A stretch of DNA of 22,969 bases, from contig JBNJGH010000052.1 of assembly GCA_051747585.1 (NCBI GenBank), positions 1-22,969 on the forward strand, written 5' to 3'. This document shows, one piece after another, positions 1,294 through 21,380 of the stretch. The number at the start of each line of letters is the position of its first letter. The first letter of the stretch is position 1. The notes beneath the pieces are model-generated. The model was given only the letters and a program-made list of their open reading frames with translations, was not told the DNA's origin and did no database searches. Position numbers and translations under genes: made by a program. The stretch is from Candidatus Rifleibacteriota bacterium. GTDB lineage: Bacteria > Muiribacteriota > Ozemobacteria > Ozemobacterales > Ozemobacteraceae.

Positions 1294-1560
1294 ATTAAAC
1301 CACCGAGCTCACTGAGTCCACCGAGAAATCTTTTTCAGCCTGTATTCCCGCGCACGTCAGATATTCAGAAAAGCACTGGTGTTTTTCTGAATATCTGACG
1401 TGCGCGGGAAAGCCGGACGGTTATACCGCCGGCTTTTACAGTAATACTCTGCCTTAAGAAAAGCATTCATGCTTTTCTTAAGGCAGAGTATTACTGTAAG
1501 CACAGGCTGAAAAAGATTAAAAGATCGGCTCTGTGAACTTTGTGGGCTCTGTGGTTTAAT
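1294..1560 (-). mobile_element. modular palindromic element copy 1 (MITE/REPIN-like), inverted relative to copies 2 and 3, carrying two long palindromes
   Basis: Terminal IR ATTAAACCAC/GTGGTTTAAT with 3x CACnGAG-type heptamers. Closing stem 1327-1343/1502-1518 (17 bp). Palindrome 1345-1410 (32-2-32), GC hairpin 1411-1434, palindrome 1436-1499 (31-2-31, perfect). Mobility is inferred from dispersed homologous copies. Confidence 0.8.
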
Positions 1561-2532
1561 AATTCTTTTTGCTGCGCATTATTGATGCGGCTTCTACGGC
1601 AAGGAAACCTGCCAGAAACATTGTTACCATAGGTACTGTTATAAAAAGAGGCTTACGATGAAAAGAATGAAAATACCAAACACTTATACTTAAAAAACAG
1701 ATAGAAGCAAGCAACTGATTGGCCGAACCAAACAAAGGCCAGATAAGCTTCCACTGACCGGTGAAAATCAATACCGCGGCCGGGAGAATGGTAAAAACAG
1801 TTGCCAGGTGTTTGTTTTTTAAAGGTTTTGCCAGTTTTTCCGGAGCAAAATCGGCCAGCTCCTGAAAAGCGAAGCGCCGCAAGCTACGGTTACAAAAAGC
1901 ATGGGAAAAAGATAACCCAACTTTTCGACTTTAAAAGTAGTAAAAGCGGGAAAAACAATTTCAGGATTATAAAAAAGCATACCGACAAAACCGCCGAACA
2001 GAAGAATGTATAACAAAAAAGAATTCAAATAATACCCAGACAGGCGCAACCGAAGCGACATAAATATAAGCGATCAGCAGATAAAGCCAAATATTCTGCT
2101 TGATCTGCAAAGGATATTCAGATCCAAGCCATACCATCAACAACAGTAATAATACTCCCACAACGGTGGCGCCGCCCAGTCCTACTCGAAGACGGTTTAT
2201 AATGAATCCAAAAACCACCGCCAGCATAATAAACATTACCGAAGAGCTTGCCGCCTGGGGTACAGTAGCAAAGGTTCGGGCAACTATAATGGTAAAAGCC
2301 GCAATTACAAGCGCAAGGGTGGCCCAGGTAAAAAGGAGAAACAATATACTGCCCCGGCAATAGAGGCAAAATGATGACCAAGCACTACCGGAGCTTTTGC
2401 CGGCATATAATCGCCTTCGTCTCTCAGGCGATGTGCCGGGGTCTTAATATTGTCATCAAGTTTAAACTTACCCGCAAGCCATTTTCCATAGGTTAAATAG
2501 GCTGCAATCAATAGAAAAAATGAAACCAGAAC
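1556..2532 (-). pseudogene. cstA: carbon starvation protein A (peptide/pyruvate transporter) pseudogene with internal deletions and frameshifts
   Basis: CstA motifs in order across changing frames: TPAH..D..DY.P...VLGHHFASIAGA / YIYVASVAPVWVL / YLNSFLL..LFPMLFVTVACGA / RFAFQEL..IWPLFGSANQLLA. Under 1 kb, far shorter than intact CstA. In-frame TAA directly upstream of VLVSFFLLIAAY and no convincing start. Confidence 0.9.
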
Positions 2533-2584
2533 TTATTCTGGATTCCTGATCCGGTTAGAACCGGTCAAAAATGGCGGGCCAGTA

Positions 2585-2710
2585 TGGTCCCTGAGCGGAG
2601 TCGCACTGGGGCGGCTTGTATCCTCATGCGCCCCAGCATTAAGGCATCCTACCTGTCAAAGGGACCCTGTAACCGTCCATTTGGTGGTTTCGACTACGCT
2701 CAACCACCAA
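2585..2710. repeat. inverted pair of REP-like palindromes, the first interrupted
   Basis: GGTCCCTGAGCGGAGTCG (2586-2603)...AAGGGACC (to 2666), and TTGGTGGTTTCGACTACGCTCAACCACCAA (2681-2710), whose reverse complement shares the TGAGCG(G/T)AGTCG core. Confidence 0.6.
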
Positions 2711-2813
2711 TATACGATGACGGATTAGGGGCTTTTTTGTAGATATTTGTGGCTTTGAGGCCTGGTGTGAGAAAATAACTTTCTGGAATTGATATCGGGA
2801 TCCGAAGAAAAAT

Positions 2814-2879
2814 CGACAACGAGGACGATTACGAGCATCCACCGTCGCCAAGGCTATGGCGGACAGGCGAGCACGATTC
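2814..2879. repeat. CGAnnA hexamer tract interrupted by a REP-like palindrome
   Basis: CGACAA CGAGGA CGATTA CGAGCA [TCCACCGTCGCCAAGGCTATGGCGGACAGG] CGAGCA CGATTC. Confidence 0.55.
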
Positions 2880-3004
2880 GCAAAATTTTACTTCTTATCT
2901 TAGTGGCATTCAGGACGTGGCTTGCGGGGTATTGATTGATATAAACGGTAAAATCTGTTAACTTGGCTTATCAACTACAGGGCGCCGAGGAGGTAGCACA
3001 ACTT

Positions 3005-4993
3005 ATGATGTCAATAGGACGTGAAATCCAATCAGATATTACCAATGCCACCCGGCAAGAATGGCTTATCACCAATGGAATCGGAGGGTATGCTTCTTCG
3101 ACTGTACCCTGCATAAACACCAGGCGCTATCATGGTATTCTGGTTGCTTCCATGCGCCCCCCGGTTGAAAGAATCGTTCTTGTATCTCGCCTCGAAGAAA
3201 TTCTGGTCATAGACGGGCATGAAGTAAACCTCTCAACCTGTGTACACAGCGATAAAATACAAAACCCAGCGGGTTATTTGCATCTTGAGCGGTTTGAGCG
3301 CGAACCTCTACCTACCTGGTATTATCAATTCAGAGATGTTCTGCTGATAAAAACCATAAATATGGTCTATGGCCAGAACACCAGTCTGGTAACCTATAAA
3401 ATACTCAATAACGGGCGCAAAACGACTCTTAAAGTAAGACCCCACTTTTTGTTCCGTGATTTTCACGGCAATCTGTTCGAAAATGACGGCATAGACAACA
3501 AAGTAAAAGCCGAAAACAAAAGTTTTAAACTTCAGCCTTTCTTTAACGCTCCCGAATTATTTGTCAGATGGGATAGAGGAAATTTTGTTTCTGCCCCTGA
3601 CTGGCATCGCGACATATTTCTTCAGGTCGAAGAAGATCGTGGGCTGGCAGCTTATGAAGACGACTTTTCCACCGGCTACATTGAAATTGATCTACCCGAA
3701 GGCTCTGCTTCGATAATTTTTTCCGATCAAAATATAAGCTCTTTTAATCCGATCGATCTGAGAAAGCGTGAAGAAAACAGAATCGTCAACATAGAAAAAT
3801 CGCTTAACTCTGATGACCAGTTCCTAAAGCAATTGCTGGTTGCAGCTGACCAGTTTATAGTCGATCGTCTCAGCACCAAAGGCAAAACAATTCTTGCAGG
3901 TTACCCCTGGTTTTCCGACTGGGGTCGCGACAGTCTTATTTCCTTACCGGGTCTAACTTTGGTAACCGGTAGAACTGCCGACGCCCGCTCTATTTTAAAA
4001 ACTTTTGCCGATTCAATTCATCATGGTCTTATACCCAATTGCTTTGCCGACAGTGGGGTCAAAGCTGCTTACAACAGTGTAGACGCCTCATTGTGGTTCT
4101 TTTTTGCTGCATATAAATATATAGAATATACCGATGATTATGACTTTGTTCAGGAGCATCTTTACGAAGCCATGCTGCAAATTGCAGACGCTTTTATTCA
4201 GGGCACTCACTTCGATATAAAAGTCGATTCCAAAGACAGTCTTTTGATGGCCGGCAACAATGACGTGCAGGTTACCTGGATGGATGCAAAGGTTGACGGC
4301 TGGGTAGTCACCCCACGCAACGGCAAGGCAGTCGAAGTTAACGCCCTCTGGTACAATGCTCTTAAAATTCTTTGCATATTCAAGGAAAAGTTTGAAGGCA
4401 ACTCGCGCGAAACCACGTCACTTGCCAAAAAAGTAAAATCATCATTCTTAAATACTTTCTGGAACGACGACGAAAACTGTCTTTATGATGTAATTTCTCC
4501 CGACGGCGAAATAGACGATTCAATCAGACCCAATCAGATTTTTGCCGTATATCTTCCTTTCAGCCTGCTTGATCAGACTGCAGAAAAACAGGTAGTCGAC
4601 AAAGTTTTTGCTACTCTTTATACTTCTCACGGTCTCAAAAGCCTTGCCGCTGATGATGACCGCTATGTCGGCTTTTATGGCGGTTCAAGGCTTAAAAGAG
4701 ATGCTGCATATCACCAGGGAACAGTATGGGGCTACCTTGTCGGGCCTTTCATCAGTGCGTATCTCAAAGCCAACAATTTCTCGATGCAGGCTCAGCTGAG
4801 AGCTTCGAATATGATAGCTCCGTTCAAAAATCATCTTAACCGGGAAGCCTGCATAGGCAATATTTCCGAAATATTTGACGGAAATATGCCTCACACCCCG
4901 CGTGGTTGCTATGCCCAGGCCTGGAGCGTTGCCGAGTTGCTACGCTGCTATGTCGAAGATATAAAAGGGCAAAAGCCCACTTTGATCATTTAA
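3005..4993 (+). CDS. glycogen debranching enzyme, archaeal-type amylo-alpha-1,6-glucosidase (GDE_N + GDE_C)
   Basis: EWLITNGIGGYASST, NTRRYHGILVA, AGYPWFSDWGRD, TWMDAK, PRNGKAVEVNALWYNAL, IRPNQIFA, AYHQGTVW, GCYAQAWSVAE. RBS GAGGAGG at 2987-2993 favours ATG 3005 over TTG 2963. Confidence 0.93.
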   Translation: MMSIGREIQSDITNATRQEWLITNGIGGYASSTVPCINTRRYHGILVASMRPPVERIVLVSRLEEILVIDGHEVNLSTCVHSDKIQNPAGYLHLERFEREPLPTWYYQFRDVLLIKTINMVYGQNTSLVTYKILNNGRKTTLKVRPHFLFRDFHGNLFENDGIDNKVKAENKSFKLQPFFNAPELFVRWDRGNFVSAPDWHRDIFLQVEEDRGLAAYEDDFSTGYIEIDLPEGSASIIFSDQNISSFNPIDLRKREENRIVNIEKSLNSDDQFLKQLLVAADQFIVDRLSTKGKTILAGYPWFSDWGRDSLISLPGLTLVTGRTADARSILKTFADSIHHGLIPNCFADSGVKAAYNSVDASLWFFFAAYKYIEYTDDYDFVQEHLYEAMLQIADAFIQGTHFDIKVDSKDSLLMAGNNDVQVTWMDAKVDGWVVTPRNGKAVEVNALWYNALKILCIFKEKFEGNSRETTSLAKKVKSSFLNTFWNDDENCLYDVISPDGEIDDSIRPNQIFAVYLPFSLLDQTAEKQVVDKVFATLYTSHGLKSLAADDDRYVGFYGGSRLKRDAAYHQGTVWGYLVGPFISAYLKANNFSMQAQLRASNMIAPFKNHLNREACIGNISEIFDGNMPHTPRGCYAQAWSVAELLRCYVEDIKGQKPTLII

Positions 4994-5254
4994 ATGGGTA
5001 AAATTAAAAAGAATCTGATCAGACAGACCGGTTTCACAGGCAAAGTATTAAGCACTGGTTTGACCGGTGGCATCTGCGTCGCTTTGAGCCTGTTTGCCGG
5101 CTACCAGTTCGATCTTTATTTCAATACAAAACCTCTGGGAATAATTGTCGGTATATTGCTTGGGTTAGCAGCTGCGGCTGTTCAAACCTATAAACAAATA
5201 AAAGAAAGCTTTAAAGAATTTGACAGAACCAATAACCCGAAACGAAAAGATTAA
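4994..5254 (+). CDS. atpZ: AtpZ/AtpI family small membrane protein
   Basis: Two hydrophobic segments around GYQFDLYFNTKPLG..G..LG. First gene of the atp cluster. Confidence 0.75.
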   Translation: MGKIKKNLIRQTGFTGKVLSTGLTGGICVALSLFAGYQFDLYFNTKPLGIIVGILLGLAAAAVQTYKQIKESFKEFDRTNNPKRKD

Positions 5255-5633
5255 AAGATGCAGTCGGCTGATTATAGCAGGCAGTATTTTTATCACTATA
5301 ATTCTAATTGCATTATTTTTTATTGAAAAACAATTTTATGCTGCATTTATAATTGGTTATGCCGTTGGCATTATCGGCTTTTTTTCTTTAACCTTCACTT
5401 TTTCGGCAATCGATAAACTGCCTGAGTGGTTTCGTATTATTGCGGTTTTAAGCTCGAGCTTCAAATTGCTTTTCATTCTTGCGATTGCGTTTATACTAAA
5501 ATATATGGGCTTTTCTATATTGCAGCTCATATTTGGCCTTTTAACCAGTCAATTTATAATAATTTCAACCATATTAATTATTGTTTATACAACAAGAAAA
5601 AATGTCGAAAATAATATAGAGAAAGAAAACTGA
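5220..5633 (+). CDS. atpI: ATP synthase protein I-like membrane protein (about 4 TM)
   Basis: Four hydrophobic segments, located directly before atpB. TTG start is uncertain. Confidence 0.65.
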   Translation: MTEPITRNEKIKRCSRLIIAGSIFITIILIALFFIEKQFYAAFIIGYAVGIIGFFSLTFTFSAIDKLPEWFRIIAVLSSSFKLLFILAIAFILKYMGFSILQLIFGLLTSQFIIISTILIIVYTTRKNVENNIEKEN

Positions 5634-5634
5634 T

Positions 5635-6312
5635 ATGCATGCACTAGAAAAAGACATTCTCTATATTTTTTCATTTATTCCGGCATCGCCAGGGGTTGTT
5701 CTGCCGTGGTTAACCAGTATTTTTGTCGGCATTTTTGTATGGTATTTCAGCCATCATCTGACCTTTGATGAGCCGGGTAAGTTTCAGAATTTTTTTGAGT
5801 ACTGCTATGAATCTCTCGAATCATTTGTAACCAACATTGTCGGGAAAGACAAGGTCAAGGAACTGCTACCGGTATTATCTACCGTTTTTATTTATATTTT
5901 TCTCGCAAATATAATGGGCCTGGTTCCCGGTCTTAAATCTCCCACCAGTCTTTTTTCCAACTGCCTGGGCATGGCTTTGATCATTTTCTTTCTCACCGCC
6001 TACTATGGTTTCAAGCATCATGGCACAGGCTATATCAAGCATTTTGCCGGCCCGATCTGGTGGATGGCGCCGCTCATGGTTCCTATTCATATTGTCGGAG
6101 AAATCTCGCGGCCGATAAGCTTAACTTTGAGGCTGTTTGGTAACATAATGGGCGAAGATGTCGTCATTCTGGTATTAACCAGCTTCATTTTTCCGTTAAT
6201 CGTGCCTATTCCAATGCACCTGCTGGCAATTTTCACCAGTTTGTTACAGGCACTTGTTTTTACAATTCTATCAGGAGTATACCTCTCTGGCGCTATAGCA
6301 GAGAGTCATTAA
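5635..6312 (+). CDS. atpB: F0 subunit a
   Basis: PGKFQNFFE, NIMGLVPG..SPT, SRPISLTLRLFGNI (essential Arg), LQALVFTILS. Confidence 0.97.
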   Translation: MHALEKDILYIFSFIPASPGVVLPWLTSIFVGIFVWYFSHHLTFDEPGKFQNFFEYCYESLESFVTNIVGKDKVKELLPVLSTVFIYIFLANIMGLVPGLKSPTSLFSNCLGMALIIFFLTAYYGFKHHGTGYIKHFAGPIWWMAPLMVPIHIVGEISRPISLTLRLFGNIMGEDVVILVLTSFIFPLIVPIPMHLLAIFTSLLQALVFTILSGVYLSGAIAESH

Positions 6313-6325
6313 ATCGGAGGTAACT

Positions 6326-6574
6326 ATGGATTACTATACGAGTCTTGCTCATATTGCAGAAATTCTTGGCGCTGCATTCAGCATATCGATCGGATGCGGC
6401 ATGGCAGCCTATGCAATGAGTCGGGTAATAAGCCAGACGATCGATTCAATTTCAAGACAACCCGAAATCTCAGGTGAACTGAGATTTGTAATGATTATCG
6501 GTCTGGCAATGATCGAGTCGCTGGCAATTTACTGCCTGCTCGTAGCCCTCATTCTTCTCTTCGTTAAATGGTAA
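6326..6574 (+). CDS. atpE: F0 subunit c
   Basis: RQPE loop, GLAMIESLAIY with carrier Glu64. RBS GGAGG. Confidence 0.97.
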   Translation: MDYYTSLAHIAEILGAAFSISIGCGMAAYAMSRVISQTIDSISRQPEISGELRFVMIIGLAMIESLAIYCLLVALILLFVKW

Positions 6575-6593
6575 TTCTCTGATTAGAGGTAAA

Positions 6594-7271
6594 ATGAATA
6601 CGGGAATTAAAACATACTATAAATATTTTCTGGTAGTGCTTCTAACCGTCTTTTGCTTTTCAGGCAAAATAACGGCGGCCCCTGCACAAAGCGAAAATAC
6701 TTCGCTGCATCAAACAGAAACTGCTGAACTGGCTACAGAATCAGAGTCTCATCAGCCATCTATGTTTGAATTCAGCTGGCCTGTTTTAATTTCACAAACC
6801 ATAAACTTTTTCGTTCTTCTTTTCATTCTCAATCGTTTTCTTTTCACTCCGATGGGCAAAATTCTCGAAGAGCGACGCGAGTCGATCGGCAGAATTAAAC
6901 TTTCCGCCGAAGAAGAGCACGACACTGCCCTGGCTTTAAAAGAGGTTTATGAAAAGCATCTGGCTAACATCGAGCAGGAAGCTTACATAATTAAACAGCA
7001 GGCCATTAAAGATGCCAACCTGAAAACTACCGAAATAATTCTCGAGGCCCGTGAAAAAGCTGAAAGAATTGTAGAAGAAGGCGAGATGGAGCTCTTCAGT
7101 GAAAGGCAGGCTGCCTGGATGCAACTTAGAGAAGAAGTGGTACATTTAACTTTGACGGCAGCCGAAAGAGTGGTCGAAGAATCTCTTGATGACGATATTC
7201 ACCGTAAACTCATAGAGCGAACAATTGAAAGGCTTGAAGAAGATTTGCCTTACCACAGTCTTAACGAATAA
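6594..7271 (+). CDS. atpF: F0 subunit b with N-terminal extension
   Basis: QTINFFVLLFILNRFLFTPMGKILEERRESI followed by a coiled coil. RBS GAGG. Confidence 0.93.
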   Translation: MNTGIKTYYKYFLVVLLTVFCFSGKITAAPAQSENTSLHQTETAELATESESHQPSMFEFSWPVLISQTINFFVLLFILNRFLFTPMGKILEERRESIGRIKLSAEEEHDTALALKEVYEKHLANIEQEAYIIKQQAIKDANLKTTEIILEAREKAERIVEEGEMELFSERQAAWMQLREEVVHLTLTAAERVVEESLDDDIHRKLIERTIERLEEDLPYHSLNE

Positions 7272-7858
7272 TGATTGAAAAGAAAAAACTAATAGCTAAA
7301 AGATACGCAAATGCTTTCTTTGATCTTCTGGAAAAAGAAGACCTGGAAGCTGGCTTTAAAGACTTTGAAGCATTTAATGCATTGTTTTTTGGTTACGAAG
7401 GGCTTTCTGAAATTCTGCTTCATCCTACAATACACATAGACCGCAAAATCAAACTGATTCAAAATATTTTCGGCGCTTCGGCTCAGCATCTGGTAGTCGA
7501 TTTTATCTGCATGTTGATAAAAAAGAAGAGACTCGGCCTGTTCGAGCAGATATCTCAAGAAATCGAAAGACTATATCGCCGCAAACACGGTATAAGGGGC
7601 ATTATTATAAAATCAGCAGTTCCTTTGATTGAATCTGAGCGTAAGAAACTCAGAAAAATTCTTTCAAAAAAATTCGGACACATAGAGATACGGGAAATAG
7701 TTGACCCGGCAATTCTGGGTGGAATTATTGTTCAATTCACCGACCAGGTAGTTGATGAATCAATAAGAAACCGCCTGAAACAATTAAAAGAATTAATGAA
7801 CAGAGTAGATGAAGACTGGCTTGAAACTCTGATGACCCAGCCTACTATCGCACTCTAG
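7271..7858 (+). CDS. atpH: F1 subunit delta
   Basis: [31 protein letters not shown]. Confidence 0.95.
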
Positions 7859-7866
7859 GAGCGAAT

Positions 7867-9453
7867 ATGACAATCAGATCAGATGAAATAATTTCTGTTT
7901 TAAAGCGAGAAATACAGCAATTCTCAGCTGAGCTTAAAACAGTCGAAGCCGGTGTAGTTTTGCAATGTGGCGACGGCATCGCCAGAGTCCATGGTCTTCC
8001 GAAAGCTATGGCCGGCGACCTTGTCGAGTTCGCCAACGGAGTAAAAGGCTATGTGCTCAATCTAGAAGAAGATAATGTCGGCTGTCTGGTATTAGGCCCC
8101 CATGACGGCATTCACGAAGGCGATCTGGTTAAAGACACAGAACGCATTTTATCTGTACCCGTCGGAAGGCACTTGCTCGGTCGCGTTCTCGATCCTCTGG
8201 GGCAACCGCTTGATGGTGAAGGACCTGTTGTGCCTGAGGAACACCGAGCCGTAGAAAGCTCAAGCCCCAATATTATTCAACGCCAGCCGGTTAATCAGCC
8301 GCTACAAACCGGCATTCAGGCCATAGATGCCTTGATTCCCATAGGTAGAGGCCAGCGCGAGCTGATTATAGGCGATCGCCAGACAGGTAAAACGGCGATT
8401 GCAGTAGACACGATCATTAACCAGAAAGACAAAGACGTTATTTGCGTTTACGTTGCAATTGGTCAAAAAATGTCTACCATTACTCAGGTGGTCGAAACCC
8501 TGCGCAAATACGGGGCACTGGAACATACAATAATAGTTGCCGCTTCTGCCTCTGACCCGGCACCATTTCAATTTATGGCACCATACAGCGGCTGCGCAAT
8601 GGGTGAGTTCTTTCGCGACAAAGGACAGCATGTGCTCTGCATTTATGATGACTTAAGTAAACACGCAGTCGCCTACCGTCAGGTTTCTCTGCTGTTACGA
8701 CGCCCACCCGGTCGTGAAGCTTTCCCCGCCGATATTTTCTATTTACACGCCCGCCTGCTCGAAAGAGCCGCCAAATTAAGCGACGAAATGGGGGCCGGCT
8801 CATTGACCGCTATACCCATTATCGAAACTCAGGCAGGCGACTCTTCTGCTTATATTCCAACCAATGTTATCTCAATTACAGATGGTCAGATTGTTTTAGA
8901 AAGTGCCCTGTTCAATTCCGGAGTAAGACCGGCAATTAATGCAGGGTTATCTGTATCCAGGGTCGGCGGCAGCGCCCAGGTAAAAGCCATGAAAAAAGTT
9001 GCAGGCCCATTAAGACTCGAGCTGGCTCAATTCAGAGAACTGGCAGCTTTTTCTCAATTTACCAAAGATCTCGACAAGGCAACCCAGGATCAGCTGGCCA
9101 GAGGCGAGCGCCTGGTTGAGCTGCTTAAGCAGGCACAATATTGCCCCATGCCCATCGAAGACCAGGTTGTTACCATATTGGCCTCAACCAAAGGTTATAC
9201 CGATCATCTCGACAAACGTGAAATCTCGCGCTATAAAAAATTCCTCCTTAAATATCTGCATCAGAAACATCCTGAAATCATGCTTTCACTCAAGCGAAAA
9301 CCTGTTTTCGACAAGGAAACCGAGTCCCGCTTCATCGAACTGATAAAAGAATTCACCGAGAATGTCTACATGCTGCAATATCACGCGAAAGAACTGCATG
9401 AAGAAGAAGAAAAGAAAGAATCAGGTTCAGGGGTTATTTCCTCAAAAGAGTAA
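7867..9453 (+). CDS. atpA: F1 subunit alpha
   Basis: [47 protein letters not shown]. Confidence 0.99.
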
Positions 9454-9455
9454 TT

Positions 9456-12146
<2,691 letters not shown>

Positions 12147-12149
12147 TTT

Positions 12150-13595
12150 ATGACTGCAGAGATGTTTTATTATCCGCAAAATCTTACACCAAAGCCTTTA
12201 GACCCCAGATATACCAATCAAAAAATTTATGCCGATGTGCCGTTGAGATTTTTTAATAATCTCGATGACTTAAAAGATTACGTTCTCGAGTTAAAAGATA
12301 TCGGCGTAAATGTTCTGCTTATTCTGCCCCATTTCAAACCATCTTTATCGCCTTATGTAGTAAAAAGTTACGAGCAGCCCTGCGAGCTTTTCGGTGACTG
12401 GCAGACTTTTGCCGATTTCATGAAATTTGTAGAAAATCTGGGTATGGATCGCATGATCGATATTCCTTTTAATCACGCCGACTGGCAGGCTGACAATCTT
12501 AAGCGCGAATGGTTTAAAGATCATGAAAATGACGGCATAGAAGCCGGCGCCGACGATGTTGATGCTGACGGTAACCGGGTTCGCATAAACTGGGGCGCAT
12601 TTATTCTCGATAATTCCCTCGAAGAACTGCAGAACTACTGGCTCGAAAAAGTCATTTTCCCCCATATAGAAAAATATCATGTCAATTCAATCAGAATCGA
12701 TGCAGCCTGGGGGCTTGATCCGAACGGGCTTAAAAGAATAATTTCCGAAACCAAAAAACGTTACCCTCATGTCTGGTTTTTAGCAGAAAACCTTGGCATG
12801 GCTCCGCTGATCAAACTGGCTAAGTCCGGAATCGAAGCCGGCGCAGACAGATTCTTTAACAATATGTACTGGTACAGCGGCGGGCTCTATATTCCTGCAG
12901 ACATATACAAACTTTACAAGCGCTCTAACGCCATGCCCACCTGCTCTATTTTCAGCAGCCACGATACCCTGATGCCGGCAATGAAAGCCCTGGCTAAAAT
13001 CAGGTCAGAAGAGGTTAAAGGCCTTAACGACAAAGCAATCGTTCGCAAGTTTGTAGAATATGAGAACATTCGCCTCCTGCAGCATCTTGAATCTGAAAAG
13101 ATTACTGAGATTTTTAAAATTATGGAACTTGAATTTGCTCTTACAGCATTGATGTCAACGGATCTAATGTTTGCCGCCGGCTCAGAGAAAGGTCTGTTTG
13201 AAAGAATCGATGTGCTTGAATCTAACCCGGAAAACTTTGCAAAAGGGGTAGATTCAGATTTTCCGCTCTTTATGAAGCAGATTATTGAAATAAAAAAGAA
13301 TGCAAAAGTATTCAATTCTGAAGGGGTTATGATTCCATTCGGGCAATGGCAACCCGATAAATTTGGCTGCAAAGGTTTTGTAAAATCTCTCGATGACAAC
13401 AGCCACGCCCTGGTTTGCGTAAATAACAGCAAGTTTGATCGACTAGAGCTTAAAATCCCGCGGCGAATGCAGAATGCCGACTCTTATTGCTTCCACAGCC
13501 CCGGCAGCAGCTTCACCAGTAATAAGATCGAGCCGGTTATTCAACTTGATCCGCACAAACTTGTTATTCTAACCAGCGAAAGGAAACAACAATGA
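12150..13595 (+). CDS. GH13 alpha-amylase-family glycoside hydrolase/transglycosylase
   Basis: GH13 regions I-IV in order: DIPFNH, IRIDAAW, FLAENL, FSSHDT (catalytic D/E/D intact). No signal peptide. Confidence 0.75.
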   Translation: MTAEMFYYPQNLTPKPLDPRYTNQKIYADVPLRFFNNLDDLKDYVLELKDIGVNVLLILPHFKPSLSPYVVKSYEQPCELFGDWQTFADFMKFVENLGMDRMIDIPFNHADWQADNLKREWFKDHENDGIEAGADDVDADGNRVRINWGAFILDNSLEELQNYWLEKVIFPHIEKYHVNSIRIDAAWGLDPNGLKRIISETKKRYPHVWFLAENLGMAPLIKLAKSGIEAGADRFFNNMYWYSGGLYIPADIYKLYKRSNAMPTCSIFSSHDTLMPAMKALAKIRSEEVKGLNDKAIVRKFVEYENIRLLQHLESEKITEIFKIMELEFALTALMSTDLMFAAGSEKGLFERIDVLESNPENFAKGVDSDFPLFMKQIIEIKKNAKVFNSEGVMIPFGQWQPDKFGCKGFVKSLDDNSHALVCVNNSKFDRLELKIPRRMQNADSYCFHSPGSSFTSNKIEPVIQLDPHKLVILTSERKQQ

Positions 13596-13993
13596 TTTAT
13601 GAACATTCAGTAAAAACTTCATCCTCACAGGATTTTGTCGACGTAACCTCACTGGTGCGGCAATCTGTTCGGGAAGCCGGGGTAAAAAATGCCCATATTC
13701 TGGTTGCCACGCCCCACACAACCGCTGCCGTCACCGTAAACGAGAATGCCGACCCTGATGTAGTAACCGATTTGATAACCAGATTCAACAAGGTTTTTCC
13801 TGAACATGAAGCAACCGATCGACATGGCGAAGGCAACAGCCACGCTCACATGAAATCAAGCCTTTTTGGCGCCTGCCAGCCATTTATAGTTAACAATGGC
13901 GATCTGGTTCTCGGCACCTGGCAGGGTATATACCTGTGCGAATTCGACGGTCCCCGCACCCGCCGCCTCATAGTAAGCATAATCACCCGGTAA
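13592..13993 (+). CDS. yjbQ: YjbQ/UPF0047 family protein
   Basis: PHTTAAVTVNENADPDV, HGEGNSHAHMKSSL, LGTWQGIYLCEFDGPRTR. Confidence 0.95.
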   Translation: MIYEHSVKTSSSQDFVDVTSLVRQSVREAGVKNAHILVATPHTTAAVTVNENADPDVVTDLITRFNKVFPEHEATDRHGEGNSHAHMKSSLFGACQPFIVNNGDLVLGTWQGIYLCEFDGPRTRRLIVSIITR

Positions 13994-14028
13994 AAATTTG
14001 GTGTTTAAACGAAGCCGAAGAATTTTTT

Positions 14029-14101
14029 GAGATTGCTTCGCTTCGCTCGCAATGACAGTCACAAATTGTCATTGCGAGGAACGCAGCGACGAAGCAATCT
14101 C
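14029..14101. repeat. REP-like inverted doublet between convergent genes; possible bidirectional terminator
   Basis: GAGATTGCTTCG..CTCGCAATGACA pairs with TGTCATTGCGAG..CGAAGCAATCTC. Confidence 0.75.
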
Positions 14102-14110
14102 TCTAACTAA

Positions 14111-15460
14111 TCAATAATCGTAGATGCTGCCGCCGATGTATTCGCGAATCAGAACATCTTTCGGAATAACATCTTCATCTTCCCACATTTTAAAAGATTC
14201 AAGCAGATCATGCACTCTTTTTGCCCTGATATAGGCATCCTGACGCTTCGGATTCTCCCGGTAATCTTTTACAAAGTCGGGAAAGTGATGGAACAGATAC
14301 TTTTTGTAAATTGGCAACTCATAAGCGAGTGAACCGTCAATAATATGATCTACCGTTCCCAGAAACGGAATAATATGCTGAATTTCAGAGCGGCGCACAT
14401 AATGCCAATGTTCCAGCGTCTGACGCGGGTTATAGCTTCTATGCCATGAATCACGCACCATGCGCCGCAGCAATCTTACGTCTGTCCAGCGAATGAATTC
14501 GCCATCTTTATTCTTGATCTGACAAAGAGTTTCGATATACAACTTGAACTTCTTCTCTTCGCTCACGCTGTCTGTCATTGGTGCATAAAGCCCATGCAAA
14601 CTGTCGAGCAACAGAATCTGATTTTTCTCTAGCTTCATCGGGTCAGTTTCCTGCTCCCGCTTTCCGGTTTTGAAATTATAGCGGGGCATCTGAATAGTTT
14701 TTCCTTCGAGCAGATCAGAAAGATGCTGATTTATCAGTTTAAGGTCCAGGGCCTGGGGAGTTTCAAAATCATAATCACCGAATTCATCTTTTGGATGATG
14801 CTCGAGATTGAAATAATAATTATCAAGCTCCATCGAAACAAGCTCATAGCCTTGTTTTTTAAGATGTTCCCCGATTTTTATCGTGGTTGTAGTCTTGCCT
14901 GAACTCGATGGGCCGGCAATAATAACAATCCTGATCTCGTCTTTTCGGGCAATGATTTTTTCTACTGCAGAAGCGATATCTGCATCGTATTTGGCGGTAG
15001 CTTCTTTTACCAGCTCGGGATAAGTTCCATTTTCAATTCTGGCGTTAATTTTGTCAACACTGTAGCAATCATGATCAATTGCCCAGGTCAGAGTCTGCCA
15101 GATTTTTTTATAAGGAATATTCCCCGAGGATGCCACACTCTGCTTTTCTTTACCCTGTCTCAGTTTATTATGCACATAACGATAAAGAATAAACTCTTTT
15201 GCCGTTTTGGCATGGCCTGATTCAATCAATTCTTTTTCGATTATATCCTGAACTTCTTCAACACTCGGCAAAGAATCAGGGCTTCTGGTTACCTCAAGAT
15301 GATGCACCACCTTATCGGTAAGAATTTCCGCCATTCGGCGATCTTCGCCACCTACTGTAATAGCAGCTTTAAAAATGGCATTAACAATTTTTTCTTTATC
15401 GAACGGTACTACCTGTCCGTTTCTTTTTACTATTTTTTCAATTGGTCTGTTCGGGCTCAC
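14111..15460 (-). CDS. ATP-cone domain fused to a uridine kinase/PRK-like P-loop kinase
   Basis: N-terminal IVKRNGQVVPFDKEKIVNAIFKA..VEEVQDIIEKELI..AKEFILYR (ATP-cone). IAGPSSSGKTT, LDNYY, YDFETPQALD, RLLRRMVRD (udk-like). GTG 15460 has AAGGA 7 nt upstream and avoids overlap with the preceding gene. Confidence 0.88.
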   Translation of the reverse strand: MSPNRPIEKIVKRNGQVVPFDKEKIVNAIFKAAITVGGEDRRMAEILTDKVVHHLEVTRSPDSLPSVEEVQDIIEKELIESGHAKTAKEFILYRYVHNKLRQGKEKQSVASSGNIPYKKIWQTLTWAIDHDCYSVDKINARIENGTYPELVKEATAKYDADIASAVEKIIARKDEIRIVIIAGPSSSGKTTTTIKIGEHLKKQGYELVSMELDNYYFNLEHHPKDEFGDYDFETPQALDLKLINQHLSDLLEGKTIQMPRYNFKTGKREQETDPMKLEKNQILLLDSLHGLYAPMTDSVSEEKKFKLYIETLCQIKNKDGEFIRWTDVRLLRRMVRDSWHRSYNPRQTLEHWHYVRRSEIQHIIPFLGTVDHIIDGSLAYELPIYKKYLFHHFPDFVKDYRENPKRQDAYIRAKRVHDLLESFKMWEDEDVIPKDVLIREYIGGSIYDY

Positions 15461-15476
15461 AAACTTTTCCTTTCTA

Positions 15477-18131
15477 TCAATTAGTATCGTCAACAACTTT
15501 ATAGGTTACGGCCAGGTTGCCGAGAATGCCGGCAAGGTTAGACCATTGCTTCATTTTGTCAGGTCTTACCAGTCTGGCTTTTGGCGGAACAAGTATCATG
15601 TCGCCGCGCTTGATGTGTCTTACATGTCGCATCTGCATAACTTCGCCGTTTGCTCTTACAACCACTGTCTTTCGATGATTCGAATAGTGTGAAAAGCCGC
15701 CGGCTCTGTTGATATAAGAACGTGAGCTATTACCCGGTTTGAACAGCAGGGTAGTCGGGTTAACCACAGCGCCCAGAACGGTTACAGTATTCGGTATAAC
15801 CGGAATGGTTATCTGATCGCCATCAAGAAGAGCGATATCTTCGTAATCGTCAGCCTTTCCTTCTGCAATTTTTTTCAATGGCACCGGAATACGCAGCATT
15901 TTGTTTTTTAAACCTCTAGAGGTCATAACCATACCGCCAAAGTCAGATTCCTGAGCTTCTGAAGAATTTTCGACAATGCTGCCTGTCTGGTCAGGTAATT
16001 CCTGACTCAACATCTGGTCAGAAATACGTTTTCCGCCTTCTACTTCAGATCTAACCTGATTCAGCGATTGCAGCTTAGCACCTGATCTTAACAGGTCTGC
16101 CCGCAAATCGAGGGTTGCCTGACGAAACATTTCACTTTGCACTTCAGAAGCGGTCTCAAGCTGTTTGTTGTTGGCAACATGCTCAACTCTCCGCATAAAA
16201 ACAGCCCCCTCGGGAAAAGCCCTGCGGGTAAGTCCGCCGGCTCTTTCAATCACCGAGCTCAATGGTTCGCCACGATATTTCAAAGCATAGGGGCCCGGGC
16301 GTCTCACCTGGCCCTTTAAGACTACAACTTCAGCCTCAACCAGGCGATCGCCCTTAGACAAAACGCTTATCCGGTCAAGGGGCTTTAAAGCAACATTTTG
16401 ATCTGAATCAGGATTCTTGAATGCCTCCAGAGCGTTTACCCTGACAATATCGACTTCATTACCATCAATTCTTGCAATTTCCACCTCACCGGAAGAATCA
16501 ATCGAAAACCCTCTTGCTTTGAGAATCAGATCGGCAATTTTCATTCCATCGCGATAAATATATTCTCCGGCACGTCGCACTGCCCCATCAATATTTACAA
16601 ATTTTATATCTGCAACGACTTCTTCCTGAGTAAAAATTCTCACCCGGTCGAGTGGCTGCAAAAGCTTGTTTTCCTTCTTATCGCCTATAAGAGCGAATCT
16701 TGTATTGAAAGTTATAATTTCTTCAGAATCGGCTGCACCTGTTCTTATAATCTGGCCAAATCTTTTACTGGCTTCTTCTACCACAAGCCCACCGGCTCTC
16801 TTTATCAGATCAGCTACATAAAGATTATCTGTGACAGCATATTCTCCCGGTTTTTTTACCGCACCTTCTATGGTAACTGTGTTACCAACAGTTTCAATTG
16901 CTTTTTCAACTGTTATCTCATCGCCGCTTTTTACAATAAAGTTTTTTAATTCCTGTAAATTTCCGAGGCTGACATCAAAGGTTTTTCTTCTCTGATTACC
17001 TGTCCAACGCACAACCTTGACTCGTCCCGAGTAAGCTTTCGACAAAGCATTGCCGGCCATGGCAAGAACATCCGCCAGGCTGTCGCCCTTGAAAATTTCA
17101 TAGATAGCAGGGCGTAGAACCATTCCCTGCACCCGTACGGAGTTGTCGATCGCGGGCACAAAAACCGTATCGCCATTTTTCAGCGAAATATCATGGTTAC
17201 GATTACCGGTAAGAAAGTAGCGATAAAGATCGAGCTCTTTAGACTTGCCATTCGGTCTTAAAACCTTGATTCGGCGCATCGAACCTCGATCTGTCGGGCC
17301 GCCGGCCTGATAAAGCCCGGCAAATGCTGTTGTAAGTCCTGATACCGTTAATGCTCCCGGCTTCTGCACTTCGCCAACCACATAAATTTGAATAGTTCTA
17401 ACCTGAGTTAGAGTTACCTGGCCCTTGAAATGTTTGAATTTTCCAGCCAGGCTACCAAGAACAGCCTCTTCGAATTGACCTACGGTAAGACCTGAGACCC
17501 CCATCACCCCAAGAATCGGCACATAAACCTGGCCTTCGGGATTAACCTGAACCTCATAAACCGTTTCATCTCCGAATTCCGACCAGACAATAATCTTGAG
17601 TTCATCACCGGGACCCAGCTGATAATTTGAAGGTGCCGAGCCGGCCAGCAGGTTGTTCTGTACCAATTCGCCGCGATCAAAAAAGTCCGAACCAAAGTTC
17701 CTCAGGTCAGTTTCAGTTTGAAGGCGTTTTTCGACTTCAATTTCTATCTCTTCTTCACTTAATCCATCCATTTTTTTTCGTTTAAGTTCTTCATTGGCTG
17801 TTTTCTCGTAATAGTATTTATCTGAAGCAATTTCTGACTTCTTTTTTTTCTGCGAAAGCTTTTCTTGAATCACTTCACGGCGCGTTTTGTCCCTCAAAGA
17901 AGCTTCAAGTTCTTCCAGCCTTTTTAAAACGTAGGCGCGACTGTCTTTTTCTTCCTGCTTTGCCTCATCCTGAGACTGAAAACTGGAGCCCGATTTAAGC
18001 AAATGGCCGTTCGCAGTAACATATTTTCCCATCACCCGGTCTTTACCGGCATTTTGCTGCTGAGCATAACAATTGGTTGCGGCAAGCAACACCATAATTA
18101 ATAATAAAAGAAAGCCTGATTTTAATTTCAT
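15477..18131 (-). CDS. polysaccharide export protein with multiple SLBB domains (Wza/KpsD-like)
   Basis: Signal peptide, Poly_export motif NYQLGPGDELKIIVW..VNPEGQVYVPILG, repeated V.GEV..PG.Y / AGG SLBB units. Confidence 0.9.
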   Translation of the reverse strand: MKLKSGFLLLLIMVLLAATNCYAQQQNAGKDRVMGKYVTANGHLLKSGSSFQSQDEAKQEEKDSRAYVLKRLEELEASLRDKTRREVIQEKLSQKKKKSEIASDKYYYEKTANEELKRKKMDGLSEEEIEIEVEKRLQTETDLRNFGSDFFDRGELVQNNLLAGSAPSNYQLGPGDELKIIVWSEFGDETVYEVQVNPEGQVYVPILGVMGVSGLTVGQFEEAVLGSLAGKFKHFKGQVTLTQVRTIQIYVVGEVQKPGALTVSGLTTAFAGLYQAGGPTDRGSMRRIKVLRPNGKSKELDLYRYFLTGNRNHDISLKNGDTVFVPAIDNSVRVQGMVLRPAIYEIFKGDSLADVLAMAGNALSKAYSGRVKVVRWTGNQRRKTFDVSLGNLQELKNFIVKSGDEITVEKAIETVGNTVTIEGAVKKPGEYAVTDNLYVADLIKRAGGLVVEEASKRFGQIIRTGAADSEEIITFNTRFALIGDKKENKLLQPLDRVRIFTQEEVVADIKFVNIDGAVRRAGEYIYRDGMKIADLILKARGFSIDSSGEVEIARIDGNEVDIVRVNALEAFKNPDSDQNVALKPLDRISVLSKGDRLVEAEVVVLKGQVRRPGPYALKYRGEPLSSVIERAGGLTRRAFPEGAVFMRRVEHVANNKQLETASEVQSEMFRQATLDLRADLLRSGAKLQSLNQVRSEVEGGKRISDQMLSQELPDQTGSIVENSSEAQESDFGGMVMTSRGLKNKMLRIPVPLKKIAEGKADDYEDIALLDGDQITIPVIPNTVTVLGAVVNPTTLLFKPGNSSRSYINRAGGFSHYSNHRKTVVVRANGEVMQMRHVRHIKRGDMILVPPKARLVRPDKMKQWSNLAGILGNLAVTYKVVDDTN

Positions 18132-18306
18132 AAATTTTCACCTGAGATTTTTTTAGTCTATTCGGCTGTCGGCCCTGATTTTTTAACCCAACCAAGTTTA
18201 AATACAGCAAATAATCTTAGTACAGTATTCAACGCCAGTCAAAACCTTTTTTTCACCGACCCGTTAAAATTCTGGTCTTATTTCTTCAGGGCAAATAAAG
18301 AATTTA

Positions 18307-18518
18307 AACCACTGAGGCCTCAGAGGGCACAGAGGTGATTTTTTTAATCTTTTTCAGCCGGCTATTTGTCCTGTGGACAAATAGCCGGCGGTTTCACCGC
18401 CCGGTTTTTCCTTCTTCAGCAAGCCTTCAGAAAAGCACTCGTGTTTTTCTGAAGGCTTGCTGAAGAAGGAAACAATGGCTGAAAAAGATTCTCTGTGTTC
18501 TCTGTGCGCTCTGTGGTT
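18307..18518 (+). mobile_element. modular palindromic element copy 2
   Basis: Flanks AACCACTGAG-GC-CTCAGAG-GG-CACAGAG and CTCTGTG x3-GTT. Closing stem 18346-18359/18477-18490, TTGTCC/GGACAA hairpin, GC hairpin 18383-18406, palindrome 18407-18472 (32-2-32). Confidence 0.8.
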
Positions 18519-18649
18519 ATTTTCTTTATGGCTTTGAGACTTGGTGTGAGGAATTTCTTTTCTGAAACCAACTGTTTGCGGAACTAACTTCCGGTCAACC
18601 GGAACTTACTTTTGCAATTAAGAAGAATTGCTGATCGCATTCAGATTAT

Positions 18650-18679
18650 TTGCCCTTGGGGTAATTTCTATGGTATAAG
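18650..18679 (+). promoter_or_regulatory. putative sigma70-type promoter for the 18716 gene cluster
   Basis: TTGCCC-N18-TATAAG with extended -10 TG. RBS AGGAG follows before ATG 18716. Confidence 0.4.
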
Positions 18680-18715
18680 TTCTTTGAAATCTCAGTATTC
18701 AGCAGGAGAGAATCA

Positions 18716-19447
18716 ATGCACAATCTGCACATCAGCCGTAGAAAGGTCGCTCTTTCTGCAGTTTTTCTAATCTTAGCCCTTATCAGCACTGCTCAGGCCT
18801 CAGTAACCGAACTGGATGCAATAGGTAAAATAGAATCTATTTATCGCGATCGCGTAACCATGCGCATTATAAAAATTCTGGGAACAGACACTGCCGAACT
18901 GCCGGTTCAGAAAGGCAGCTGGATAAGCTTTGACCTGCCCTCTCTCAACGGCAAAAATAGAAACAGAAGAAATAACGTCAGTTATGGTTCTGTAGTCGAA
19001 GCCTCTCTGATAGGCAATGTCACCACCGAATACGAAAAAGACCTCGACAAATCCGAAGACAGCGCCAAACAGGCTCCGGTATTGCTCTGGACAGCTCAAT
19101 CAGTTAAAAAGGTTAAGCGACCGAATGAATATCTTTCTAAAAAAGATAAAGAAAAAGGCAGAAAAGGGAACAAGCAAGAAAGAGAAGAAGAAGAAACCAA
19201 AGTCTGGACCCAGGAAGAAACTGTGCGTGGAAAAATCAATTTCCGCGAAAAAGACAAAAAGCTCTATATTAAAGAAGAACGAATGGGAAGACGTGACAAA
19301 GGACTCGACGTAGTTGACGATCTCTGGTATAAAAAACTCAAAGATTTTCACGGACAAAAAGTTGTAGTTCACGGCACTACTAATCGCAGCTCTATTTCAT
19401 CCGGAACTATTGAAATCGAAAATCTGCTTAAAATTTATTCAAAATAA
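18716..19447 (+). CDS. secreted hypothetical protein
   Basis: RBS AGGAG, signal-peptide-like N-terminus (..STAQA), two beta-rich halves joined by a K/E-rich linker. No family recognised. Confidence 0.75.
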   Translation: MHNLHISRRKVALSAVFLILALISTAQASVTELDAIGKIESIYRDRVTMRIIKILGTDTAELPVQKGSWISFDLPSLNGKNRNRRNNVSYGSVVEASLIGNVTTEYEKDLDKSEDSAKQAPVLLWTAQSVKKVKRPNEYLSKKDKEKGRKGNKQEREEEETKVWTQEETVRGKINFREKDKKLYIKEERMGRRDKGLDVVDDLWYKKLKDFHGQKVVVHGTTNRSSISSGTIEIENLLKIYSK

Positions 19448-19471
19448 TATATCTCAAAAGGGGAATCTAAA

Positions 19472-20563
19472 ATGAACTGCAAAGTAGCCCTGCTGGCAAT
19501 ATTTTTATTTTCACTTGGTCTCACACTTGGCTGCGGAGGCGGCGAGGAAAATGCTACACCAAAAAATCTTGAAGTAGTTCATTTTACCAGATTACAGGGT
19601 CTCCCCAACGAAAATATCACCTGCATGGCATCATTTGCCGGTCAGGTCTGGGCCGGTTCCCAGAAAGGTCTTTTAACTTTCGACGGTGCCAACTGGAAGC
19701 ACCACGTCAGCAAGAACACTAACGTTCTTGGCTCGGATATAATCGAAGACCTGAAAGTCTGCGATAACGCCCTATGGATCGGAACCGACAACGGCGCCGC
19801 ACGTTATGACGGCAACAACTGGAGCTCGGTCTACACGGGCGGCAGAGCTCGCTCAGTCTGTGGCACCGGCAATAAAATGGCTGTCGCCACCGCCCACGGT
19901 GTAGAATATTCCTCTGGCAATGCATTTGCCCCTATGGGAAAAAAGAGCGCCGGTCTTGTCTATGATGAAGTAAATCAAGTTTTATTTGACTCGCAAGGCC
20001 AACTCTGGGTTGGCACCAGAGCCGGAATGGCCAGAATGAGTTCGGGTATTTTTCAAAATTATACCGGTCCGGCAAAATCAGTCATGGGTTCTTCACTGAT
20101 CGACATTCCCGCCAGCCCGGCAAACTGCCGACTGGTAGGAAACAATGTTAAAATTCTGATGGAATTCGGCGATCAAATAGCTGTAGGCACAACCAGCGGC
20201 CTGACTCTGACCGATTTCAGCAATTCCTATGTCAGTTATTTTTCCACCCATAAAGACTGGGCACAACGCGGCGGCAAAATTGTCGAGGAAACAATTACCG
20301 GTAACAGCCCCCTTCCCGGCAATGTTATCAATGCTCTGGCAACAACTCCAGACGCAGAGCTTTTGTTTGTCGGCACCGGCAATGGCCTGGCCATCTTAAA
20401 GGGCAATAACTGGCTCGACACAACAGACATAATAAAAGATCTGCCGCCAATTTCCATTACCGGCCTGGCCTATGTAGCGCCCGATCTGTGGGTCGGAACC
20501 CAGAATGGAATTTATCGCGTTAAAAATATAGAAACATTAATCACACCTGAAAATAAATCTTGA
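19472..20563 (+). CDS. lipoprotein with two-component-regulator-type beta-propeller repeats
   Basis: Lipobox LTLG-C. Repeated GLP.E.I / LWIGTDNG / LWVGTRAG / LWVGTQNG units. Confidence 0.8.
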   Translation: MNCKVALLAIFLFSLGLTLGCGGGEENATPKNLEVVHFTRLQGLPNENITCMASFAGQVWAGSQKGLLTFDGANWKHHVSKNTNVLGSDIIEDLKVCDNALWIGTDNGAARYDGNNWSSVYTGGRARSVCGTGNKMAVATAHGVEYSSGNAFAPMGKKSAGLVYDEVNQVLFDSQGQLWVGTRAGMARMSSGIFQNYTGPAKSVMGSSLIDIPASPANCRLVGNNVKILMEFGDQIAVGTTSGLTLTDFSNSYVSYFSTHKDWAQRGGKIVEETITGNSPLPGNVINALATTPDAELLFVGTGNGLAILKGNNWLDTTDIIKDLPPISITGLAYVAPDLWVGTQNGIYRVKNIETLITPENKS

Positions 20564-20567
20564 AATT

Positions 20568-21014
20568 ATGACCCAAAAATCTGTCTACAGATTACTGGCA
20601 GCGCTGGCCATCATAGTTCCAACCGCCACCTGCGCGCAGGAGCTGGCTGCCCCCGCCGCCGAACTCGCCACCTCAACGGCCATAACCGCCCATGAAGCAA
20701 TAGCCGAGATGCCGCCTGAATTCAAATTCGCTCTGGTAACCCTCGGGTCAGGCGGAATAGCCGGCTGGGCCGTAGGGTTTACCCTCAAAAAATTCGCCAA
20801 GTTAGCCGCTCTTATTGTCGGCATTGCCTTTATATCAATTCAATACCTGGCCTACTATCGCTACATAACCATCGACTGGGACCGCATCCAGGCTTCGGTG
20901 CCAAACGAAAGCATCGAAAGGTCCTGGGCCGGCATAATGTCGGTGCTTACCTACAACCTCCCCTTTGCCGGCGCATTTTTAGTAGGCTTCTGGCTAGGCT
21001 TCCGCAAAGGCTGA
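20568..21014 (+). CDS. FUN14 family membrane protein
   Basis: GGIAGWAVGFTLKK..Q.LAY..YITIDW..NLPFAGAFLVGFWLG. Confidence 0.85.
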   Translation: MTQKSVYRLLAALAIIVPTATCAQELAAPAAELATSTAITAHEAIAEMPPEFKFALVTLGSGGIAGWAVGFTLKKFAKLAALIVGIAFISIQYLAYYRYITIDWDRIQASVPNESIERSWAGIMSVLTYNLPFAGAFLVGFWLGFRKG

Positions 21015-21108
21015 CCCCCCCCGATTTTCTCACCAATCCTCGGTAAAGCTTTATCAGCTGGTTTCCAACACCATTTGTTTATCACTCTCCGTCGACCAGG
21101 AAAATTTC

Positions 21109-21300
21109 ACCACGGAGCTGTTTTCCCATCTTTTTCAACCATGGATTGTCCTTGCGGACAATCAGCCGGCGGTTTCACCGTCCGGCTTTCAGAACAACAT
21201 CAAGCCCTCAGAAAAGCACCAGTGTTTTTCTGAGGGCTTGATGTTGTTCTGAACACTGGTTGAAAAAGATCCTCTGTGATGCTCTGAGTGCTCTGTGGTT
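21109..21300 (+). mobile_element. modular palindromic element copy 3 (left flank reduced to one heptamer)
   Basis: ACCACGGAG left flank. Closing stem 21128-21141/21257-21270, hairpin 21144-21163, GC hairpin 21164-21187, palindrome 21188-21253 (32-2-32), right flank CTCTGTG/CTCTGAG/CTCTGTG-GTT. Confidence 0.8.
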
Positions 21301-21380
21301 ATTATTTTTTTGGCTTAATTTGATTTAATTACAAAAATTTTGGGGTTGTTTGTTTTTTTTAAAAGTTTTAAATTAGGGTA

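Follow-up and report, generated by a model that had tools for sequence, protein, structure and literature searches.

What kind of element leaves the same folded, non-coding sequence three times between the genes of one contig, and what keeps a long hairpin within it paired while its sequence varies? We pursued these questions in a 22,969-nt stretch of DNA (the window; contig JBNJGH010000052.1, here C52) from a Candidatus Rifleibacteriota bacterium whose genome is a fragmented metagenome-assembled genome (MAG) of 330 contigs and 93.6% completeness. A genome-wide family search, which the initial annotation of the window had proposed as a check, identified the three copies as truncated members of a high-copy family. 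The explanation that we regard as probable is that they are truncated copies of a miniature inverted-repeat transposable element (MITE) of ~369 bp, placed by a DDE transposase 16 bp upstream of −35-like boxes and enclosing a doublet of GxxExxY-type ends, in which the symmetry of the long hairpin arises by template switching.

A promoter-targeting MITE shell around a structured core

At full length the element is a non-coding MITE, nested in structure and bounded by terminal inverted repeats CAGCAATTCTCGG. Its inner module consists of a core between inverted CACnGAG units in sets of three, which resemble the units around GxxExxY genes in relatives, and the flanks reach ~80 bp past the units on each side to the terminal inverted repeats CAGCAATTCTCGGTCA / TGACCGAGAATTGCTG. 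The parts can be read off copy 2, which bears the abundant young core and spans 18266 to 18633 on the plus strand. A left triple array of the CACnGAG type (18310-18334) is followed by the core (18347-18489), where a 13-bp closing stem (18347-18359/18477-18489) encloses a small hairpin (18360-18382), a GC hairpin (18383-18406), a long 66-bp hairpin (18407-18472) and a 4-nt linker, and then by a right array of three CTCTGTG units (18491-18515). The outer ~36 bp of the left arm have been replaced, and the right arm reaches the terminal repeat, ending at 18633. The order and spacing of the parts in the three copies, and the intergenic position of all three, agree with the initial annotation; the limits that it gave were too short, the outer arms with their terminal inverted repeats having been missed.

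Forty-five pairs of terminal repeats, a few of them chance pairs, lie 360-376 bp apart in this genome. A 9-bp target duplication is exact at 13 of the 45 and has at most one mismatch at 21, the frequency in a mismatched-pair control being 0.001; the absence of a target-site duplication noted earlier is thus true of the three truncated copies, but full-length copies elsewhere do carry it. The first base of the element is C in 34 of the 45 pairs and T in 10 (CAG or TAG starts). Insertion is also oriented with respect to promoter-like sequences: TTG stands at position 17 outside 57 of 109 right ends vs 5 of 89 left ends (Fisher p 1.5e-13), and a −10-like TAnnMT at 40-41 outside 59 of the 109 right ends, the right end usually lying 16 bp upstream of a −35-like box. 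Copy 2 obeys this offset. Beyond its right end at 18633, a candidate sigma70-like promoter read from the sequence (18650-18679, plus strand) comprises a −35 TTGCCC (18650-18655), an 18-nt spacer and a −10 TATAAG (18674-18679), and faces an open reading frame (ORF) at 18716. The shell is a promoter-targeting MITE. Its terminal inverted repeats, 9-bp duplications, ~200 end motifs and fixed-distance promoter targeting bear out the earlier proposal of a non-autonomous mobile element served in trans; the inverted repeats together with the 9-bp duplication suggest that the enzyme that inserted the shell was likely a DDE transposase acting in trans.

Six times (over 213-550 bp, once with an exact duplication) the same shell brackets other repeat clusters without the core, and it also occurs as short deletion forms; the shell is therefore a general carrier. 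Deletion derivatives, at C4:68125, C306:1794, C209:2106, C318:58, C5:57154 and C177:3399-3463, are joined at short motifs common to the terminal repeat and the units, or to the right arm and the hairpin centre. At C142:7801 and C136:70 the left-arm unit array contains a sequence that we take, by its motif, to resemble the 3′ end of a group II intron.

Pairing of closing stems across the genome returned 98 pairs, namely 95 of 140-145 nt, two double-long-arm variants (190 and 195 nt) and one spurious pair, and 97 complete cores were kept. The end motif has 200 matches in this genome and, among 86 other genomes of the phylum, at most one match each, with two mismatches, in 8 of the 86. The core was not found in these 86 genomes by a covariance model of 22 cores, run with strict filters on 37 candidates per genome. 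Neither end nor core patterns matched in viral contigs, a plasmid scan gave no match, and literature searches returned no description of this element, nor of GxxExxY cassettes as mobile elements. In two independent runs the copy number is also high, with summed depth, a rough copy measure only, of 700-1066 over the element vs ~7 in flanking genes in run X1, and of 693-1123 in run X4, where long contigs stand at 12-15 and unique genes hardly map. The element is real, nested, non-autonomous and restricted to its species. A joint between 18359 and 18475 in run X4 represents a form with the small hairpin alone between the closing stems, not found in this genome. A metagenome scan yielded four loci, with a true left end only in L062; there (L062:458-1922), behind the MITE left end and a core-less interior, lies a 402-aa transposase whose own inverted repeats differ from those of the MITE; from its resemblance we presume it to be of the IS256 type.

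Symmetry and inversion of the long hairpin

In all three copies of the window the two 32-bp arms of the long hairpin enclose a 2-nt loop and are mismatched once, four bases from the centre. As first described, it starts on the base next to the GC hairpin and is followed by a 4-nt linker; it is an imperfect and not a full palindrome. Across the genome, 112 long hairpins were collected, 92 with 32-bp arms and 87 with the mismatch kept at position 4 from the centre, and together they display 68 distinct variable 20-mers. The variation is paired: in the alignment of 22 cores, both partners vary in 22 of 31 pairs, and 98% of cells are paired. The 41 young cores show 5 uncompensated changes and 13 distinct compensated ones, the latter in 21 copy-events, and pairing apart from the central mismatch is still perfect in 8 of the 12 copies without either outer end. 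Because such private double changes occur in near-identical copies, they point to templated copying rather than to two mutations followed by selection.

Covariation had been claimed for the closing stem (CAGCC/GGCTG to CAACC/GGTTG), where it is seen in only one of the 97 cores. Since 68 of the 97 have the exact consensus stems and the variants other than this one are nearly all uncompensated, the closing stem is conserved in sequence, and the real covariation sits in the long hairpin. Pairwise identity among 54 old cores is 0.47 in the arm middle, 0.92 in the hairpin centre and 0.98 in the closing stem; the GC-hairpin identity of 0.63 and a 4/20 arm comparison were ungapped and affected by register shifts and are not used as measures. 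A guide- or spacer-like origin of the variable arm was rejected, a genome search with 68 variable 18-mers and 2 mismatches having returned other copies or scattered weak matches.

Parts of the element are found in both orientations. The hairpin centre reads A/C in 42 and G/T in 33 of 95 copies, is symmetrised in 19 and is of another form in 1. Relative to its flanks, the whole core lies the other way round in 37 of the 95 copies that could be scored, rarely in young ones (5 of 39) and more often in old ones (32 of 54). The inversion is always at the closing stem, since the long spacer remains beside the left arm in all 75 informative copies. For the GC hairpin no inversion was seen, none of 95 carrying the bulge only on the 5′ side; inversion is commoner for the longer repeats (core 58:37, centre 42:33, GC hairpin none). 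Arm homogenisation with spacer inversion is a described outcome of template switching (PMC8604942, PMC5941160), and the symmetry of the long hairpin is probably kept by this process and not by selection on an RNA.

In the mechanism that we favour, a DDE-type transposase acting in trans would set the right end of the MITE 16 bp upstream of −35-like boxes, and a GxxExxY-type doublet would have been captured once between the MITE ends. Arm-to-arm copying by polymerase template switching during DNA replication would fix each new substitution in both arms, and would invert the hairpin centre and, via the closing stem, the whole core, while recombination among the many copies would swap modules and homogenise the core. 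The fixed 32-bp arm length and the conserved scaffold might then reflect a REPIN-like constraint on length and pairing, imposed by some reader.

The centre of the long hairpin was also sought as a pattern in genome contigs, where at least 47 loci matched, mostly with short stems. One long palindrome was among the matches listed, L110:1471-1550 (Pyrinomonadaceae), with 39-bp arms of CGCAAAG units and the same centre, including the G.T mismatch; this likeness, one among at least 47 pattern matches, may be coincidence.

Origin of the inner module and competing explanations

Genes of the GxxExxY family (PDDEXK_3, PF13366) occur in 29 of 87 phylum genomes. We fetched 30 loci, dropped three weak matches and examined 27: tandem units stand upstream of the gene at 16 and flank it, in inverted order, at 9, the frequency in control windows being 12 of 664 (0.018). 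The CACnGAG unit of the window itself is present at L113, L114, L115, L117 and L122, and one relative genome (G010) holds many gene-less doublets with variable spacers. Judged by this arrangement, the inner module likely stems from GxxExxY nuclease-cassette ends, as a doublet that lacks the gene and has a fixed spacer of three hairpins; its architecture is directly visible, and from it we infer the origin. The function of PDDEXK_3 is listed as unknown (PMC3424549). A model of a GxxExxY protein (pLDDT, the predicted local distance difference test score, 94.6) matched restriction-endonuclease-like folds in general (best Z 8.6, root-mean-square deviation 3.2, 100 aligned); one of many matches was the junction resolvase Hjc (Z 6.5). 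The predicted fold is a generic PD-(D/E)XK one and says nothing specific about the substrate. By sequence, no solved relative was found, and one query of viral contigs returned no relative.

Several results weigh against a MITE shell with a captured doublet and template-switched arms. The flanks of 17 of 39 full-length core copies differ at three or more of the 9 positions, and no joint across the element, such as an empty site would give, was found in four runs; run X1 appears to carry insertions at both tested sites, and the same-genus genomes examined have rearranged or other neighbours at these genes. For the transposase families tried, no enzyme gene between ends like those of the shell was found in this genome or in the loci fetched from the 86 relatives: PF06782, PF00872, NF033529, NF033572, NF033590 and NF033592 are without match in this genome, and the fetched loci carry other inverted repeats. 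Mutator-like transposases gave no match in this genome, and those matched in relatives have other ends; the ISLre2 models matched no control genome. For IS4-type (Tn5-like) transposases, none of 45 loci from the NF033590 and NF033592 searches, several of them cut by contig ends, has a matching terminal repeat. Two PF01609 matches in this genome, which we take to be IS1380-like and IS1182-like, were ruled out as the cognate transposase by their other ends. The ISMae2 group of ISNCY also combines a CAG end with a 9-bp repeat. The GxxExxY gene, likewise, had no match in this genome nor in five same-genus genomes, all incomplete assemblies. Finally, passive template switching leaves unexplained the constant 32-bp arm length, the conserved centre and closing stem beside a variable arm middle, and cores more uniform than shells.

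The last point was quantified in 26 full-length copies chosen for their young arm, in which diversity is 0.07 in the inner module vs 0.22 in the left and 0.16 in the right outer arm, climbing in the outer arms toward the ends. A core less diverse than its shell is the reverse of what a fresh burst of transposition leaves, and adds to the points against the explanation we favour. The low inner diversity fits hairpin-centred conversion or a still-replicating inner module, although arm selection and short-read collapse could produce part of it.

This profile is accommodated by an alternative, which we rate as tentative and on balance unlikely, in which the inner module would replicate actively by itself. 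A nuclease supplied in trans, of the GxxExxY type or a hairpin or junction cutter, would recognise the unit arrays and the fixed four-way junction and cut within the long hairpin. Repair from another copy would, equally tentatively, overwrite cores in older MITE shells and seed shell-less copies. Besides the uniform core, such replication would account for outer-arm truncations that nearly always stop short of the inner module (on the left 1 of 31 reaches inside 34 nt; on the right 0 of 33 reach inside 28 nt, and 11 end at 28-30), for the 175 of 184 triple arrays in the genome that lead into a core, for module swaps such as that in C305, where young flanks accompany an old long arm, and for the conservation of scaffold sequence and arm length next to arm middles close to saturation. 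No direct repeat longer than 4 bp lies outside 14 shell-less copies. Against an active replicator stand the lack of a GxxExxY gene in this genome and genus and the generality of the fold matches, Hjc being only one of many rows; moreover, the copies were selected on long arm and intact core, which favours both the uniform-core and the truncation patterns, and short-read bubble collapse could yield a uniform centre. By the same doubtful account the element would hold two nested parasites, a GxxExxY-type doublet spreading by nuclease-driven, homing-like conversion inside a promoter-homing MITE with a non-Mutator transposase, and the 32-bp arm with its conserved central mismatch could conceivably be a ruler or a cut site.

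Far less probable is a core that acts as a structured RNA, or as an RNA element selected by the host (stabiliser or terminator), and is merely spread by the MITE. The fold is very stable (z-scores of −23.5, −17.1 and −14.1 for copies 1, 2 and 3, with 0 of 200 shuffles as stable for each copy) and covariation is strong (score 0.384 vs 0.116 shuffled). The structured RNA scaffold envisaged in the initial annotation nevertheless finds no support: comparison with Rfam, another check it had proposed, gave no match in the window, the core was not found in the 86 other phylum genomes searched, and both centre and core occur in both orientations. The stray mismatches comprise 16 G.T vs 13 A.C, without G-U preference, and therefore show no RNA-type bias. 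An RNA run (X2) yielded no contig over the copies and weighs neither way.

We give equally little credence to an inner module that is an ordinary REPIN moved by the Y1 (RAYT-like) transposase of the genome. One Y1_Tnp gene is present (C196:4566-5205), and REPIN spacers are described as under constraint for both length and pairing, compensatory changes being common in them (PMC3116915), but the DNA 3′ of this gene has no contiguous match of more than 11 identical bases with the element and bears a different repeat, the contig ends within the 5′ flank of the gene, and the doublet ends are units of 9-bp period and not tetranucleotide-tagged repetitive extragenic palindromic (REP) hairpins. A 9-mer of that 3′ repeat occurs 14 times in the genome. 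Short-read assembly of a 100-copy repeat might also have created most of the inversions, the module swaps and the uniformity of the young core. Such an artefactual origin is suggested by the fragmentation of the MAG, by 49 of 660 contig ends falling inside an element and by many unmatched flank pairs, yet is hardly credible given that both core orientations appear as joints in the independent runs X1 and X4, that one read spans the 66 bp within which compensated pairs fall, that private variants persist in young cores and that the long spacer never leaves the left arm in informative copies.

The copies of the window and their relation to known systems

The other two copies show how far truncation has gone. 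Copy 1 (1294-1560, minus strand) consists of the inner module alone, without outer arms or terminal repeats, and is a double-long-arm variant: between its unit arrays (1301-1325 and 1529-1553) the closing stem (1328-1340/1505-1517) encloses two long hairpins, at 1345-1410 (66 bp, adjoining the GC hairpin at 1411-1434) and at 1436-1499, with the one long arm unlike the other in the variable part. The genome holds one other double-arm copy, on contig C92. Copy 3 (21031-21316, plus strand) starts with a degenerate left terminal repeat at 21031 and has lost its right arm after ~21316. Its core (21128-21270; closing stem 21128-21140/21258-21270) includes a GC hairpin at 21164-21187 and a long hairpin at 21188-21253. 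The triple CTCnGTG-type units reported for the copies are present on the right (21272-21297 in copy 3), whereas the left arm of copy 3 has had two of its three units deleted and retains the one at 21111-21117. An isolated fragment of the MITE right arm (2746-2788, plus strand) lies inside a cluster of other intergenic REP-like repeats (2530-2860). We also observed an extra hairpin-like insert in the right arm of copy 2 (~18587-18622), a gene for the carbon starvation protein CstA in pieces directly right of copy 1 (1556-2344, minus strand, two Pfam CstA fragments) and an F-type ATP synthase operon, complete by ORF resemblance and otherwise unremarkable, at 4994-12146.

With ~110 paralogous hairpins, one genome offers a natural experiment on the evolution of palindromes. 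Compensated changes exceed uncompensated ones even in young copies, and strong covariation need not, on this showing, mean a functional RNA. Through its inner module the element, present in many copies, is connected with the uncharacterised GxxExxY nucleases, for which the module provides a defined test substrate.

The core corresponds to no named family that we found; its parts have known counterparts in a MITE shell, a REPIN-like doublet and the signature of template switching. Prokaryotic MITEs with REP-like cargo and mosaics resembling bacterial interspersed mosaic elements (BIMEs) are short non-coding elements with terminal inverted repeats, lineage-specific bursts and nested repeats. Like MITEs, the element described here is short, non-coding and of high copy, with terminal inverted repeats and a target duplication; unlike these mosaics, it has a fixed four-way-junction geometry and a 32-bp arm that varies freely but remains fully paired. 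REP dimers nested in longer palindromes are described in PMC3733652, in passages that do not include this family. With GxxExxY cassettes and gene-less doublets it shares an identical end architecture, with tandem units upstream and inverted units downstream, but it has no nuclease gene, its structured core is fixed at 142 bp where the spacers in G010 vary, and its doublet is captured in a promoter-targeting MITE. The arms recall cases of quasi-palindrome template switching (PMC5941160, PMC8604942) in their homogenisation and in spacer inversion favoured by longer arms, and differ from them in the number of paralogous copies, in the retained central mismatch and in a constant length that the process leaves unexplained.

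Two further systems come closest in single traits. In p-MULT 3 (ISLre2/TnGBS) and p-MULT 4 (ISKra4) elements the right inverted repeat lies 16 bp upstream of the −35 box, with direct repeats of 8-9 bp (Guerillot et al. 2014, PMC3942029), which the oriented insertion and 9-bp duplication of our element match. The p-MULT elements begin with G in the 15 rows listed from Table S1 of that work, whereas ours begins with CAG or TAG and lacks the conserved terminal base (5′ G, 3′ C), and no such transposase was found in this genome; the words "MITE" and "miniature" do not occur in the main text of PMC3942029. Because ISLre2-like targeting here goes with ends that are not Mutator-like, another class of transposase likely reads promoters. 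Like REPINs and their RAYTs (Bertels and Rainey 2011, PMC3116915), the inner module has two inverted end repeats, a spacer constrained in length and pairing with compensatory changes, many intergenic copies and, probably, an enzyme in trans; unlike them, its ends are triple CACnGAG units of 9-bp period and not REP hairpins, no RAYT is shown to be linked to it, its spacer is a three-hairpin junction, and the doublet sits within a shell of terminal repeats and target duplications. The element thus resembles ISLre2 in its targeting and a REPIN in the constraint on its spacer, and departs from each in a defining feature.

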